DNA of 51,434 nucleotides from Candidatus Methanospirareceae archaeon (GCA_049975405.1 JBNGDK010000003.1:17133-68566); one strand, 5' to 3'; positions 33,120-48,063 are shown, numbered from the stretch's first letter. Notes: generated by a model not told the origin, from the letters alone. Made by a program: numbers and translations.

Positions 33120-34073
33120 TTAGTCTTCCTCTAACAAGCGATTGATATTGAAGAAGGCGTCTATCTCCGCGTCGAGTATATCTCGCTTGCCGTTGTCACT
33201 CAACGGTTTCACCTGTGTTTTATAGTCTTCCAAATACGTTATGAAAATGGCTACCTCCTCCTTGTGAGCCTTTTCTAAAATTGAGAGGAGCACATAAGGA
33301 TTGTGCGTCGAAATGAAATACTGGTTATCTGACTTAACGAGCGCTATCCGCTCAGCCAGGTATTGTGTATAATAGGGGAATGCATGAGTTTCTGGCTCCT
33401 CAAATACGAGTACCGAGTTCTCATTCGTCCCCATGGCAACAAGGTAGAAAATAATGCGCTGGAGTGTATCAGAAGTTAAGGAATACGGATGATGGATAAG
33501 GAGGTCTTCAATTTCTTTCTGGAGCTTTATCTTGCTCTCGGACGGATCAAGGACAACTTTCAAGCCATATACATCAAAGATCTGCTTTACCAGTTTTCGT
33601 AGATCCTTGCGGGTTAAGATCATTGTTAATAAGTTATCACCAGAAGGAGGAGCGAGGAATTCAGCCTCACGGTTTGGGAAATCTCTTCTTACGTCAAATT
33701 TGTAAAATTTAAATTGTTTGAAATCAGGAGCACGCGTAACACTTCCTCTAGCAGAATAATTGTAAGTAAAGCTTCTAGCGCCGTTTAGAAATCCCTCAAA
33801 GTTTCCATCGCGAAATTGTATTCGAAATGCATTGTGATCGAACTTTATAATAATCGCTTCTTCCACAAGGTGATCATAAAATAGATTGCTCATGCTCTCA
33901 AATCGGACAAAATTTTCAAGATCACCATAATAAATGTGCGAAAGCAATCCCAGCGCCTCCAAAATATTCGACTTCCCGGTATTCGGCTCACCAATGAAGA
34001 GATTTATCCGCTTACAGTCAAGGCTCAGGTGCTGTATCGATTTGAAATTCGTGATCTCCAGATTCTTTATCAT
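33120..34073 (-). CDS. Standalone ABC-type ATPase (AAA_15/AAA_21-like)
   Basis: LEITNFKSI, Walker A GEPNTGKSNILEA, Walker B VFEEPETH, H-loop STHNPY; AT-rich. Confidence 0.85.
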   Translation of the reverse strand: MIKNLEITNFKSIQHLSLDCKRINLFIGEPNTGKSNILEALGLLSHIYYGDLENFVRFESMSNLFYDHLVEEAIIIKFDHNAFRIQFRDGNFEGFLNGARSFTYNYSARGSVTRAPDFKQFKFYKFDVRRDFPNREAEFLAPPSGDNLLTMILTRKDLRKLVKQIFDVYGLKVVLDPSESKIKLQKEIEDLLIHHPYSLTSDTLQRIIFYLVAMGTNENSVLVFEEPETHAFPYYTQYLAERIALVKSDNQYFISTHNPYVLLSILEKAHKEEVAIFITYLEDYKTQVKPLSDNGKRDILDAEIDAFFNINRLLEED

Positions 34074-43970: not shown

Positions 43971-44834
43971 TTAGCTCAGGATCTGCAGAAGATCGCGATC
44001 GAGGAGCATTCCGATCAATTTTCCACGGGCTGAGATCACCGGTAGCTGATCGAACCGACCCTCAGTCATCTTCTTCGCGCATGCGCTCACGCCATGATTG
44101 CGCGTCGCGGTTACCACATCCCGCACCATCACTGCCTTGACCAGCTTCTTCGGCATTCGTATCCGTGAAACGCTGTAGTACAGCGTCATATGATCTCGCA
44201 TCCCGTCCAATGACCACTCGCTCTCATCAGAACCCAGCGAGAGGTCAGAACGATCCACATGGTCCTCGATCATCGCCGCTGAGATCAAATCCTGATCGGT
44301 GATGAGCCCCACGATAGCCAGCTCGGCATTGAGGACCGGCACCGCTTTTACCTTCGCCAGCTCCATGATCCGACCGGCGACGTTCAGCGGCATCTCATCC
44401 CAGAGTGCGAGCGTCTTATCCCTTAGGAGCCCGGCAATGGGTGTCCTGTTGTCCCACGTTGCGATCGCCTTGATGAAATCCGCGACTGTAACGAGCCCGA
44501 TGAGCTTGTGCCCCTCGACCACGGGTAAGCGGCGGATGCGGCGATCCCGTATCACTTTCGCCGCGTCAGCAAGGCTGGTCTCTGGAGTGATAACCAACGG
44601 ATCGCGTGTCATCAGCAGGGCTACTTGCTCTTCATTGGGCTTCCGGAGCAGATCCTGGCGCGTAACGACGCCAACCACCTTGCTGTCTTTAACAACCGGA
44701 ACACCCGAGACAAATTTCTCCTTGAAGAGCTCCAACACATCTTCGCGCGTTCCCGGAACTGTCACGTACGCGACATCCTTTACCATGATATCGCGAACAG
44801 TCAATCGTCCACGTTCGTTCTGATTCGTGTTCAT
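43971..44834 (-). CDS. Four-CBS-domain protein
   Basis: VRDIM, SGVPVV, RRLPVV, AVPVL, QLPV repeats. Confidence 0.9.
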   Translation of the reverse strand: MNTNQNERGRLTVRDIMVKDVAYVTVPGTREDVLELFKEKFVSGVPVVKDSKVVGVVTRQDLLRKPNEEQVALLMTRDPLVITPETSLADAAKVIRDRRIRRLPVVEGHKLIGLVTVADFIKAIATWDNRTPIAGLLRDKTLALWDEMPLNVAGRIMELAKVKAVPVLNAELAIVGLITDQDLISAAMIEDHVDRSDLSLGSDESEWSLDGMRDHMTLYYSVSRIRMPKKLVKAVMVRDVVTATRNHGVSACAKKMTEGRFDQLPVISARGKLIGMLLDRDLLQILS

Positions 44835-45088
44835 TCCAAGCGATAAACCATATCGTGAGGTCGGACCTTCCCGGGCACCTTCAACCCAACTGCTTCGCCT
44901 GCGGTTGCCGTCTCCACCTTCTTGTTCTCGATCTCCATCGAATCAACCACCTGTTCAACTGCGGTCGTGGCGCCTTCAATCAGTATCCGATCTCCGACCG
45001 AGATACGATCGCTCAGCTCGACCACCGCAACGCCAATGCGCGAGAAGTAATGCGTTATCTTTCCTACGAGCTTCTTCTCGTCCATCAC
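44831..45088 (-). CDS. Small EF-Tu domain-II-like / U32 C-terminal-like beta-barrel protein
   Basis: VGKITHYFSRIGVAVVEL...VGDRI.IEG.TT...Q.V.SMEI...V..A..G..VGLKV...VR..D.VY. Confidence 0.8.
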   Translation of the reverse strand: MMDEKKLVGKITHYFSRIGVAVVELSDRISVGDRILIEGATTAVEQVVDSMEIENKKVETATAGEAVGLKVPGKVRPHDMVYRLE

Positions 45089-45110
45089 TACACCTCTTTC
45101 TAGTAGCTAG

Positions 45111-45488
45111 CTATATTAACTTGTATTTTCCCTCGTAAAGTAAAAAGGGTACCTCTTTGCCTGGTTCGATCCGGTCCATCAGCTCTTCCGCGACCTGTAT
45201 CTCAATCGTGGAGAAGTCTTCCAGATCCATGATCTGTACCGTAGAGCCCATAACAGCAAGCACCTGGCCGCTTTTTCGCTCAATAATCGGCACGTAGATC
45301 TTCGCCGTCACCGGCTGGACCGCAGTCCGTTTTTGCGAGTCGAAGACACCGATGGCCTCCATTCTCGCCTTTGCCGCGCCATGCTTCCCCGGCTTCGAGG
45401 TTGTTATGCTCATGATCGTACAGGGCTCATCATCGATAATGACATACTTCCCTTCCTTCAACATCCGTACCTCGGTCAATTCCTTCAT
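45111..45488 (-). CDS. eif5a: Translation factor aIF5A
   Basis: Hypusine loop SKPGKHGAAKAR; GKYVIIDDEPC; VQIMDLE; GGAGG SD upstream. Confidence 0.95.
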   Translation of the reverse strand: MKELTEVRMLKEGKYVIIDDEPCTIMSITTSKPGKHGAAKARMEAIGVFDSQKRTAVQPVTAKIYVPIIERKSGQVLAVMGSTVQIMDLEDFSTIEIQVAEELMDRIEPGKEVPFLLYEGKYKLI

Positions 45489-45754
45489 GATTTCGGTAAC
45501 GCCTCCTTTACCCTTTTTTCGCGCTCTTATGCCCTTCCTATACGGTGATGGCAGGGTTACAATGTATACAGTGCCCGCACTACATAAATATACGGGGCAA
45601 AAGCGAGAACGAGCCGTCCTGCCCCACCTGAGACCGGTGTGAAATCCAATATATATAAGGGACTCATCTATCTAAGTAAGCCCCGGGGCCTCCTGGGGAA
45701 GAAAGCGTGGCGCAGCGGGTGCGAGTTACCGTGACCGCAACAGCATACACCGCT

Positions 45755-45771
45755 AAAAAGCAAAGAAAGTA
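45755..45771 (-). terminator. T-rich tract after the bS22-like gene
   Basis: Minus strand reads TACTTTCTTTGCTTTTT about 32 nt past the stop codon. Confidence 0.4.
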
Positions 45772-45803
45772 CGGATCGCGAAACAGCGGCGGTTGAGCAT
45801 ATT

Positions 45804-45890
45804 TTATTTCTTATACCGCATCTTCTTCCGTCGCTTCTTCAACTTATGTTTCCGCATCTTTTGTATCTTTCGTTTCTTACCGCAGGGAAT
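45804..45890 (-). CDS. 28-aa basic bS22/mS38 (COX24/AURKAIP1)-like ribosomal microprotein with apparent ATT start
   Basis: Manual translation (ATT)PCGKKRKIQKMRKHKLKKRRKKMRYKK*; SD GGTGA 6 nt upstream; in-frame TGA three codons upstream excludes an earlier start. Confidence 0.72.
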   Translation of the reverse strand: MPCGKKRKIQKMRKHKLKKRRKKMRYKK

Positions 45891-45914
45891 TTCTCCTCAC
45901 CACCTTTCGTATCT

Positions 45915-45957
45915 TTTATGCTTTGTATAGTTAGCTTATTTAGATAAGAAGCATAAA
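45915..45957. promoter_or_regulatory. Nested inverted repeats in the divergent promoter
   Basis: TTTATGCTT (45915-45923) / AAGCATAAA (45949-45957) enclosing CTTAT-TTAG-ATAAG (45935-45948). Confidence 0.45.
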
Positions 45958-45983
45958 TATCTTTGAGACTGGAAGGAGAAGAA

Positions 45984-47123
45984 ATGGGCAGGATAGAGCG
46001 GCCACCTAGTTGGATTTTGAAGTATAAAGAGGGGATAGAGGCTGGCACGATTACTGTTGAACAGATCCTTGAGGAGGAGAACAAGCTTCGAAAAACACCT
46101 ATTAAAGTATCCTCGGTCACGAGGGCGATCAATGCCCTGGGGCTTCCGATTACGGGCTTGCGAAGGCGAACGCAAGGCCAAGCGAACAGTAGCGATGCTG
46201 CCGCGGAAACGGACGATGAGCTGAGTGCAGTCGAAAAGCCTCCCGCATGGATACAGAAGTACCGTGATCGAATCGAGAAGGGCACACTTACCGCTGAGCA
46301 AATTCTCGAAGAAGAGAACGAGCGGCGGACTGTGCCGATCAAGATAACGACGGTGAAACGGGTAATGAATGCTATGGCACGTACAGTTGAAGGAATGCAG
46401 AACGAAGAGCGCGATGAATTAGAAGTGGCGAATGAGACCTCTGAACGAGGAGATACCTCCACAGCGGGACAGAAGGGCCCTGGTTGGCTCCAGAAGTACC
46501 GTGACCGGATAGAGGCCGGTACGATTACGGTCGATGAGATACTCGCCGAGGAGAACAAAAGCCGTGAGACCCCGATCAAACGTTCTTCAGTAACACGGGC
46601 GATCAATGCTCTGGGTTACCAGACGGGTCAGCTGCAACGGAAGGCAGCGAAAGAGGCAGTAGCGAGCACGGAGGAGCACCGCGAAGAGCAGAGCACCAAA
46701 GCAGCGAGCGAAGAGAAAGGACCGGGCTGGCTCCAGAAGTACCGTGACCGAATAGAAGCCGGGACGATTACGGTCGATGAGATACTCGCCGAGGAGAATA
46801 AAAGCCGCGAGACTCCGATCAAACGCTCCTCGGTGACACGGGCGATCAATGCTATGGGCTTCACCATCGCGGGCATGCGCCGTGGGAAGCGAGAAGCGGC
46901 GAAGGTTGCGGAAGAGCCGGTGAAAAAAGCGGCGAAAGCGGAAGCATTCGTTTATAGCTCCAGCCTGGGGAAGCTCTCGGAGCCGACGCTCAAGCGATTC
47001 ACTGAGGTGAAAAAGAGCTGGGAAGAGGACTTAGGGAAACCGTTGCAGAACGACTATTTCCTCAATATGCTTCTTGCGTTGGCCAGGCTCGCCGAGCGCG
47101 GGAAGACGCTTACGTCACGGTAG
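45984..47123 (+). CDS. Uncharacterised protein with four tandem ~48-aa HTH-like repeats and an RHH-like C-terminus
   Basis: ATG 45984 after AAGGAG; repeat consensus P.W..KY...IE.GT.T...IL.EEN..R..PIK...V.R..NA. Confidence 0.85.
   Translation: MGRIERPPSWILKYKEGIEAGTITVEQILEEENKLRKTPIKVSSVTRAINALGLPITGLRRRTQGQANSSDAAAETDDELSAVEKPPAWIQKYRDRIEKGTLTAEQILEEENERRTVPIKITTVKRVMNAMARTVEGMQNEERDELEVANETSERGDTSTAGQKGPGWLQKYRDRIEAGTITVDEILAEENKSRETPIKRSSVTRAINALGYQTGQLQRKAAKEAVASTEEHREEQSTKAASEEKGPGWLQKYRDRIEAGTITVDEILAEENKSRETPIKRSSVTRAINAMGFTIAGMRRGKREAAKVAEEPVKKAAKAEAFVYSSSLGKLSEPTLKRFTEVKKSWEEDLGKPLQNDYFLNMLLALARLAERGKTLTSR
45999..46859 (+). repeat. Four intragenic 144-nt repeat units
   Basis: Units at 45999-46142, 46236-46379, 46473-46616 and 46716-46859; spacing 237, 237 and 243 nt. 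Confidence 0.9.
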
Positions 47124-47139
47124 CGCTAACGTAACACGG

Positions 47140-48063
47140 ATGAGAATTCTGGTCGCTGAGTACGCAGTCGGCGGAGGTGCCGGAAAGGACTCTTCGTTGT
47201 TGCAGGAAGGGAGAGCAATGCTCGCTACGCTCAGGCGGAGCTTTGAGCGGTTAGGACACGAAGTTGTTTTTCCGGCGTTCGAGCAGGATTTTATGGCGGC
47301 GGTGGAGCGACTTGCGGCGCACTGTGACGCGGGCATCGTTATCGCGCCAGACGTTGAGCTCGCCAGACTAACGCGTGTTCTGGAATCAAACACGGTCAAT
47401 TTAGGCTGCCCTTCTGATTTTGTCGCCATATGCGCCGATAAGCTCAGAACCACTGAGCTGTTGCGTGCGGCAGGGATAGTGGTGCCGAAGATGCTCACCG
47501 CGCACGACGTGGAGCGGTTCGACACGCGATCGCGAGCATACATCAGCAAGCCGCGCTTTGGGTGCGCATCCGAGAACGTCATCGTGCTGAACGAAGAGCA
47601 GCGAGATGAATTGTGCAGTCAGTACGATGATCCCGATTGCTTTATCTCGGAATTCATCCAGGGCGATGATCTGAGCTGTAGTCTCATCGCCAGCAGATCC
47701 TCGATCCTCCCGCTTACCATTAACAAGCAATATATCCGGTTGGAGCATGGGCGTCTAAAGTACTGCGGCGGGTATGTACCGTACGTGCTCGATGAGCTGA
47801 TCGCGCAGACGATTCAGCAGATCAGTGTGTCGGTGGTCACGAGGCTGGGTGGTACGGGCTACGTGGGGATCGATTTCGTGGTGGATGAGGGCGGAGCCGC
47901 GTACGTTGTAGATGTCAATCCGCGACCCACAACCTCCATCATCGGAATCGCTCGGGTCCTAAATTATGAAGTGGCAGACTTACTCATCCGCGCGAAATTT
48001 GGCACGCTCCCTACCGCAGCCGAGCTCAAAACCGAAGGTACCTTTGAGTTCAAGCTTTCTTAA
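47140..48063 (+). CDS. mfnD: ATP-grasp ligase, tyramine-glutamate ligase-like (methanofuran biosynthesis)
   Basis: MRILVAEYA...EG.AML..L, VIAPD, NLGC, CADK, KPRFGC, INKQ, Y.GG, GYVGIDF, DVNPRPTTS. Confidence 0.8.
   Translation: MRILVAEYAVGGGAGKDSSLLQEGRAMLATLRRSFERLGHEVVFPAFEQDFMAAVERLAAHCDAGIVIAPDVELARLTRVLESNTVNLGCPSDFVAICADKLRTTELLRAAGIVVPKMLTAHDVERFDTRSRAYISKPRFGCASENVIVLNEEQRDELCSQYDDPDCFISEFIQGDDLSCSLIASRSSILPLTINKQYIRLEHGRLKYCGGYVPYVLDELIAQTIQQISVSVVTRLGGTGYVGIDFVVDEGGAAYVVDVNPRPTTSIIGIARVLNYEVADLLIRAKFGTLPTAAELKTEGTFEFKLS

Follow-up and report, generated by a model that had tools for sequence, protein, structure and literature searches.

The gene at positions 45984-47123 on the plus strand of the window, a stretch of 51,434 nucleotides (nt) from a Candidatus Methanospirareceae archaeon (GCA_049975405.1 JBNGDK010000003.1:17133-68566), encodes a protein of four repeated units followed by a separate C-terminal tail. 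The gene is near-universal and single-copy in the ANME-1/Methanophagales order, to which it is private. The family, its confinement to one order and its architecture are new, whereas the two folds predicted for the protein, a helix-turn-helix (HTH)-like bundle in each unit and a ribbon-helix-helix (RHH)-like tail, are of known kinds. We tentatively propose, giving the idea slightly less than an even chance, that the product is an ANME-1/Methanophagales-specific, dimeric and multivalent DNA-binding protein with an architectural or global regulatory role, rather than a one-operator repressor. Much of the anaerobic methane oxidation in sediments is the work of ANME-1 archaea, which are uncultured, so that almost nothing is known of their genome organisation and regulation. 

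Conceptual translation of 45984-47123 (+) yields 379 uninterrupted codons, the gene being intact and free of internal stops. The ATG at 45984 sits five bases after the Shine-Dalgarno-like GGAAGGAG, and the N-terminus, MGRIERPP.W, agrees with the start shared by the homologues (consensus MGRIERxPxWILKY); thus, the gene coordinates of the original prediction, which had been made from the sequence of the window, are right. A long minus-strand frame in the same DNA (45839-46606) represents a shadow of the repeat. The protein comprises four units of ~52 amino acids (aa), linkers of ~27-29 aa and a separate tail of 54 aa, which bears out the four repeats and distinct C-terminal segment described originally, all quoted strings being exactly present in the translation. 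The units start approximately at aa 6, 85, 164 and 245, with a period of 79/79/81 aa, and the layout is as follows:

45984..47123 (+), whole open reading frame (ORF) P0001, 379 aa plus stop, N-terminus in agreement with homologues, single-copy in its own genome
45999..46154 (+), unit 1, aa 6-57, predicted three-helix module, positional orthologue
46155..46235 (+), linker 1, aa 58-84, acidic, isoelectric point (pI) 4.5
46236..46391 (+), unit 2, aa 85-136, most diverged of the units
46392..46472 (+), linker 2, aa 137-163, acidic, pI 4.05
46473..46628 (+), unit 3, aa 164-215, modelled as the stretch aa 160-217
46629..46715 (+), linker 3, aa 216-244, pI 5.3
46716..46871 (+), unit 4, aa 245-296, near-copy of unit 3
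46872..46958 (+), linker 4, aa 297-325, basic, pI 10, disordered in the tail model
46959..47120 (+), RHH-like tail, aa 326-379, with a predicted strand segment (327-332), helix A (333-350), loop GKPLQ and helix B (356-371)

The whole protein has a pI of 9.05 and the units have pIs of 9.3-9.7; the tail and linker 4 are also basic, and linkers 1-3 are acidic (pI 4.0-5.3). Basic patches at the linker openings had been described as well, and these are present in three of the four linkers but not in the second, which begins with GMQNEERDE. No linker column has a majority residue in the family alignment, and linker length across the family has a median of 31 aa with a range of 19-112.

No Pfam, NCBIfam or PDB sequence match exceeds its threshold, in line with the earlier statement that the protein belongs to no named family. 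Pfam and NCBIfam scans with the whole protein returned sub-threshold matches only (DUF7418, GntR, H-NS and others); among 53 family members, the commonest of such matches are EAD11 (25), DUF3400 (15), DUF1902 (13), Trns_repr_metal (8) and GntR (8), which we reject as homology because no single stretch passes alone and the scores are sums over the repeats. A PutA_1st match in the homologue P0045 falls in a unit and not in the tail. At E <= 0.001, a word-indexed protein search recovers 166 proteins; the best 120 of them are annotated as hypothetical or carry stray automatic names, and those with a named source derive from metagenome-assembled genomes labelled ANME-1, Methanophagales or 'Methanomicrobia archaeon', with a few other labels. 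An exhaustive phmmer search of 1.84 billion representatives finds 24 clusters at E <= 0.001, one of which (P0140) is, by sequence, an unrelated repeat protein.

The gene is present once in its own genome, which is 99.8% complete. Across the class, a match is found in 66 of 79 genomes, distributed as 62/65 in the protein's own family (f1), 2/2 in the sister family (f2), 0/4 in f3, 1/3 in f4 (E 3e-4), 0/1 in f5 and 0/3 in f6. With a profile as the query, a phylum sample of 301 genomes gives 37/38 for f1, 2/2 for f2 and 1/1 for f4 (E 5e-7), and 0/254 for families outside the class; these counts are samples, and several of the genomes without a match are incomplete. The lineage is ANME-1/Methanophagales and not Methanomicrobia in the wide sense, across which the original prediction had suggested that the distribution be checked. 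Scanning viral contigs with the single protein revealed no locus, and a full-text literature search, judged on its result listings alone, returned nothing describing this protein. Many f1 genomes also encode a family of ~147 aa with a diverged unit.

The repetition of the unit is far beyond chance. A profile built from the four units detects two to five units in all of the best 120 of the 166 homologues (two units in 4, three in 51, four in 63 and five in 2), individual counts being open to error where short-read assemblies have collapsed repeats. Forms with one unit plus tail, of 123-142 aa, also occur, including in the sister family f2, such that the number of units varies from one to five among relatives, as had been anticipated. 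At the DNA level, the repeat forms a single direct-repeat family of four 145-nt copies with 63-90% identity to the reference copy, and Tandem Repeats Finder did not detect the four units. Between units 3 and 4, 47 of 52 residues are identical; 20 codons differ, 15 of them synonymously, with the other five located at the C-terminal edge. This excess of synonymous differences indicates that both units are under purifying selection and that the frame is coding, and identifies an old duplication maintained by selection, neither a recent copy nor an assembly artefact. Across proteins, unit 1 shows 78% identity, compared with 61-64% to the other units, whereas units 3 and 4 are 86% alike inside one and the same protein and 70% alike when taken from different proteins. 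Together, the orthology of unit 1 and the within-protein likeness of units 3 and 4 imply that units are gained and lost at the tail-proximal end.

Conservation over 350 distinct units is highest at P7, W9, Y13, I27, E31, N32, R35, K40, V44, R46 and N49, within the consensus PgWlqKYreRIE.GtITVe.ILEeENkiR..PIK.ssVtRAiNamG. The third helix, PIKxSSVTRAINAMG, is nearly constant across all units and species and constitutes the best-conserved polar stretch of the unit, while helix 2 is both conserved and acidic. In the orthologue at L062:106-1260 (+) (genome G037), which has near-identical units 3 and 4, a true internal TAG replaces a conserved Glu in helix 2 of unit 3; an in-frame TAG in the orthologue of genome G029 proved to be that orthologue's own, slightly earlier stop codon.

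The original prediction viewed the repeat as a three-helix HTH. AlphaFold2 modelling of unit 3 (58 aa, 53-row alignment) predicts a three-helix bundle with a mean predicted local distance difference test (pLDDT) score of 86.6 and a predicted template modelling score of 0.71, where the helices span residues 8-19, 24-34 and 41-50, corresponding to aa 167-178, 183-193 and 200-209 of the protein. The model agrees with the right-handed three-helix bundle of ~50 residues that characterises tri-helical HTH domains. Structural alignment of this model against 48,161 chains yields 1,130 chains at Z >= 2 and none at Z >= 5, where values of Z < 8 may mean merely a common arrangement. The best neighbour is FapR (4a0x_A; Z 4.4, 2.6 Å over 47 residues), followed by PerR, two ArsR-type proteins, an Lhr winged helix and the sigma-54 RpoN domain; at lower rank are Zur/Fur, MecI, AsnC, the GcrA DNA-binding domain, Zeste, ArgR, MarR, StbA, a small terminase and transposase HTHs. 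The neighbours are thus mostly HTH or winged HTH (wHTH) DNA-binding domains, and the weak Foldseek lists lean likewise. In addition, GntR reaches 20.6 bits against a cut-off of 27 in the window protein (and is sub-threshold in 8/53 members), and the HTH language-model cluster of the Atlas scores 0.75. Myb/SANT repeats are defined by three tryptophans at regular spacing in each repeat and by short linkers between the repeats; this feature is absent here, each unit having one invariant Trp and one Tyr and the median linker being 31 aa long. On the basis of the model, we refer to the unit as HTH-like and do not claim membership in the HTH superfamily: the three-helix bundle and the HTH/wHTH-dominated neighbours agree with the original view, but no match reaches significance (Z below 5 and Foldseek E above 0.5 throughout) and helices 2 and 3 are six residues apart.

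Within the family, conservation is highest in the tail, where 21 columns of a 14-row alignment are invariant. In its model (74 aa), the first 18 residues are disordered (pLDDT < 50) and are followed by an extended stretch at residues 19-27 and helices at 28-45 and 51-66, that is, the RHH order of strand, helix A, short loop and helix B within ~45 residues. No strand is assigned to the monomer by DSSP, as would be the case for a sheet that is built only upon dimerisation. Against the same 48,161 chains, 218 reach Z >= 2 and none Z >= 5. The N-domain of TraM is the best neighbour (3omy_B; Z 4.2, 2.6 Å over 47 residues), NikR scores Z 3.8 (2.0 Å over 42 residues), and RHH proteins lead and fill the top 50, including MazE6, ParB of pCXC100, the PutA RHH, MazE-mt9, MatP and TacA as well as ParD2, AmrZ, VapB12, DinJ, SvtR, the PrpA RHH and YiiF. 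Two of the entry titles state RHH; the remaining proteins are counted here as RHH proteins. In the language-model comparison, the closest named clusters, RHH_1, RHH_3 and RHH_6, score 0.84, a value that is under the trusted level and is used as a lead only.

A homodimer prediction with two copies of tail residues 15-74 gives a score of 0.42 (runs of 0.40, 0.42 and 0.45) compared with 0.00 for the best control, passing a mark that 20 of 30 solved homo-pairs, but just 1 of 23 proteins solved as single chains, also attain. Contacts agree by >= 71% between runs and the partner pLDDT is >= 67. The predicted interface is symmetric and involves residues 22-27 (SLGKLS) of both copies, helix A and helix B, so the tail is predicted to pair via intertwined N-terminal strands, as in RHH homodimers; this pass is a prediction rather than cellular binding and may partly reflect likeness to solved RHH dimers. 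The RHH dimerisation tail of the original prediction is in this way backed by the order of its elements, by its neighbours and by the homodimer test, but not by profile comparison with NikR, as described below.

The unit is also found outside the repeat protein. In two other ANME-1 genera, a protein of 342-345 aa consists of one unit followed by a complete aspartate dehydrogenase (Asp_DH_C 121.6 bits, NAD_binding_3 78.6 bits) and is encoded divergently from nadC (QRPTase_C 192.4 bits):

L023:1296-2333 (-), unit-aspartate dehydrogenase fusion
L024:1168-2196 (+), unit-aspartate dehydrogenase fusion

The window genome's own aspartate dehydrogenase is without a unit. It is possible that the fusion is an enzyme-regulator of NAD synthesis. 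P0138 (323 aa) combines an N-terminal HTH-like stretch with a LAGLIDADG_3 domain (34.6 bits against a cut-off of 22.5) and one C-terminal unit, and P0139 and P0142 each have one unit and a Cys-rich end. A module that resides both on an enzyme beside a pathway gene and on a DNA-cutting enzyme would appear to behave as a DNA-binding head, much as in BirA, NadR and PutA and in the accessory domains that homing endonucleases carry.

In the arrangement that we favour, the C-terminal 54 aa would form an RHH module in which interlocked helices and a pair of antiparallel strands hold two chains together, and which might itself be placed in a major groove. Each chain would contribute four HTH-like three-helix heads on poorly conserved, mostly acidic tethers of ~30 aa, giving a dimer with eight equivalent heads (two to ten in relatives). 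Since helix 3 is near-identical in all units and species, all heads would be expected to read one type of site, and could engage several like sites on one or on different DNA segments, leading to avidity, looping or bridging. Such an architecture, in which an array of similar DNA-binding-type heads is tethered flexibly and ends in a pairing module, is absent from the family libraries searched. If the protein binds DNA as proposed, it would open lineage-specific genome organisation or global regulation to experiment, and would show in nature how repeat number can tune valency. As the protein is small, soluble-looking and easily expressed, the main claims can be tested without culture.

A number of observations weigh against this proposal. 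No HTH or RHH model of Pfam or NCBIfam exceeds its cut-off in the family, with none of the RHH models matching the tail, and a PDB profile search has zero matches. Neither fold has a significant structural match: no chain reaches Z >= 5 for the unit (best Z 4.4) or for the tail, Foldseek finds nothing at E <= 0.001 for the unit (best E 2.5 in PDB and 0.55 in BFVD) or, in PDB, for the tail, and hhalign of the tail with a 29-row NikR RHH alignment returns a probability of 1.2% over 11 columns, both alignments being of low diversity. The unit departs from a canonical HTH in that its helices 2 and 3 are connected by six residues (35-40, RETPIK) instead of a turn of 3-4, and in its strongly acidic helix 2 (ILEEEN). 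Moreover, the units are merely mildly basic (median net charge +2, with 69% of units positive), below typical nucleoid proteins. The genome contains histone genes (four full matches and one partial) and Alba genes (4 + 1), and therefore presents no chromatin gap to be filled. Finally, a near-identical helix 3 on very different partners could equally fit a common protein partner.

Comparison with known systems places the two modules in context. RHH proteins with extra domains, such as NikR, PutA, TraM and MatP, share the strand-helix-helix of ~45 aa, the symmetric intertwined dimer (predicted here) and the presence of other domains in the chain. In contrast to these, the RHH-like module here is C-terminal and follows an array of HTH-like modules, with no sequence-level link, and helix A is approximately one turn longer than in NikR by our reading of the structures. 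Myb R1R2R3 and the bipartite HTHs of paired and Tc3 likewise have several three-helix modules per polypeptide, any of which could in principle recognise a stretch of DNA, whereas the present protein is archaeal, has long, poorly conserved linkers, no tryptophan triad and an RHH-like end, and varies from one to five modules within one order. HTHs of the GcrA and small-terminase types are weak neighbours of the unit (5yiu, Z 3.8, 2.2 Å over 42 residues; 4xvn, Z 4.0), and a phage GcrA-like protein has a Foldseek E of 0.71; none of these matches is significant and none extends to sequence. By our reading, the GcrA and terminase HTHs share with the unit a Trp opening helix 1 and the pattern ...TR.A...G at helix 3. 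The resemblance to BirA, NadR and PutA, enzymes that regulate their own pathway with a DNA-binding head, concerns the relatives' unit-aspartate dehydrogenase and not the gene of the window. Archaeal histones and Alba are alike only in the proposed role and resemble the protein in neither sequence nor fold.

An ordinary sequence-specific transcription factor is conceivable, but in our judgement rather unlikely. Here, the RHH dimer would bind an operator in its own promoter, shared with the divergent gene for a small basic protein, or control the downstream ATP-grasp, JAB and cytidylyltransferase genes, with the HTH units touching flanking direct repeats. Most known RHH proteins are local repressors, the same ATP-grasp gene lies directly after the repeat-protein gene in 11/11 relatives' loci with gaps of 10-45 nt, one RNA-library contig joins the two genes, and the polar residues of helix 3 are strongly conserved, as for a fixed target sequence. 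However, one to five units among close relatives are ill-suited to a fixed operator layout, the unit also resides on a nuclease and an enzyme elsewhere, and the 94-nt promoter region displays no conserved repeat array across genera besides its TATA-like boxes. A dedicated ANME-1 chromatin-architecture protein, in which RHH-paired chains with two to ten equivalent heads on acidic tethers would bridge distant DNA, with a reach tuned by one to five units, we regard as unlikely. The unit would then serve as a nucleoid 'address tag', bringing the NAD-synthesis enzyme and the homing-type nuclease that bear it to the same chromosomal sites.

It is improbable that the unit is instead a protein-protein adaptor and the multi-unit protein a scaffold, anchored to DNA or just dimerised by its RHH tail, that gathers unit-bearing or unit-recognising proteins. 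Unrelated partners do carry the unit with nearly the same helix 3, and the conserved acidic helix 2 would suit such a role, as would the sub-threshold whole-protein matches of 25/53 members to EAD11, which is presumably an adaptor-type domain; yet these matches contain no stretch that passes by itself and are sums over the repeats, single units give no EAD11 score, and the structural neighbours are DNA binders and not adaptor domains. Very improbable, finally, is an RNA- or ribosome-associated factor. An IF-5A gene lies divergently upstream in 8/11 relatives' loci, the other three ending within 668 nt, and the promoter region is shared with a small Lys/Arg-rich ORF in 7/7 loci examined, but no RNA-binding fold is prominent among the structural neighbours and neighbourhood alone is weak evidence. 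Known RHH and tri-helical modules are overwhelmingly DNA binders, and a multivalent, DNA-binding dimer remains the reading that we tentatively prefer.

The surroundings of the gene contain the following features:

45891..45983 (no strand assigned), divergent upstream region with two opposed GCATAAA(A/T)A boxes and the Shine-Dalgarno-like GGAAGGAG
45913-45924 (-) and 45951-45960 (+), TATA-like boxes, read from the sequence
45804..45890 (-), 28-aa Lys/Arg-rich ORF, IPCGKKRKIQKMRKHKLKKRRKKMRYKK, a neighbour that is separate from the repeat protein

The GCATAAA(A/T)A boxes would represent TATA-like promoter elements within the 94 nt that remain between the two divergent genes. Between the opposed boxes lies a palindrome, CTTAT-TTAG-ATAAG (45935-45948), which is conserved within the genus only and could be an operator. 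In the ~500-nt upstream space, a block of ~130 nt is conserved across genera because it encodes the minus-strand 28-aa peptide, and it was rejected as a binding-site array on the grounds that it is this small ORF. The peptide, IPCGKKRK(I/V/L)(Q/A)KMRKHKLKKRRKKMR(Y/F)KK, is retained, with numerous synonymous substitutions, in each of the seven loci that were compared, a set that leaves out L007 and L008. An in-frame TGA is located three codons upstream, no ATG, GTG or TTG occurs ahead of the internal Met, and AGGTGGTGA is positioned six bases ahead of a conserved ATT, suggesting that the ORF is likely an ATT-initiated gene divergent from the repeat-protein gene. Neither Pfam nor NCBIfam gives a match for the peptide, which resembles ribosomal eL41.

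The part of the spacer between the IF-5A gene and the repeat-protein gene at 45600-45795 is unconserved even within the genus and contains the GC-rich, hairpin-like GCCCCGGGGCCTCCTGGGG; in an RNA-library contig of a relative, 180 nt of this part are swapped for 170 other letters. Rfam reports nothing in 44500-47500 at E <= 1 and nothing window-wide at gathering score. Only one run of RNA data contains part of the stretch (share 0.05, as contigs), and its contigs, from a relative of ~87% identity, span the whole gene in three pieces. The contigs have a depth of 59-77 across the gene and of 32.6 across IF-5A, falling to 2-6 at more distant downstream positions; such depths cannot rank genes, DNA may occur in such libraries, and we draw no claim of abundance from them.

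The repeat-protein gene is syntenic among relatives, lying between the IF-5A and ATP-grasp genes. Among the neighbouring genes, IF-5A and NikR exceed their NCBIfam cut-offs, and the ATP-grasp protein is MfnD-like but scores 118 against a 400-bit cut-off. A JAB/MPN-like gene follows the ATP-grasp gene in 10/11 relatives' loci, and NCBIfam assigns the gene following the ATP-grasp entry to the cytidylyltransferase family. Further away, a low-GC island (0.417 compared with ~0.55) at 33120-34073 (-) encodes a 317-aa P-loop ATPase-like protein (GEPNTGKSN) between two genes that, judged by eye, look like housekeeping genes, and may have been acquired horizontally.

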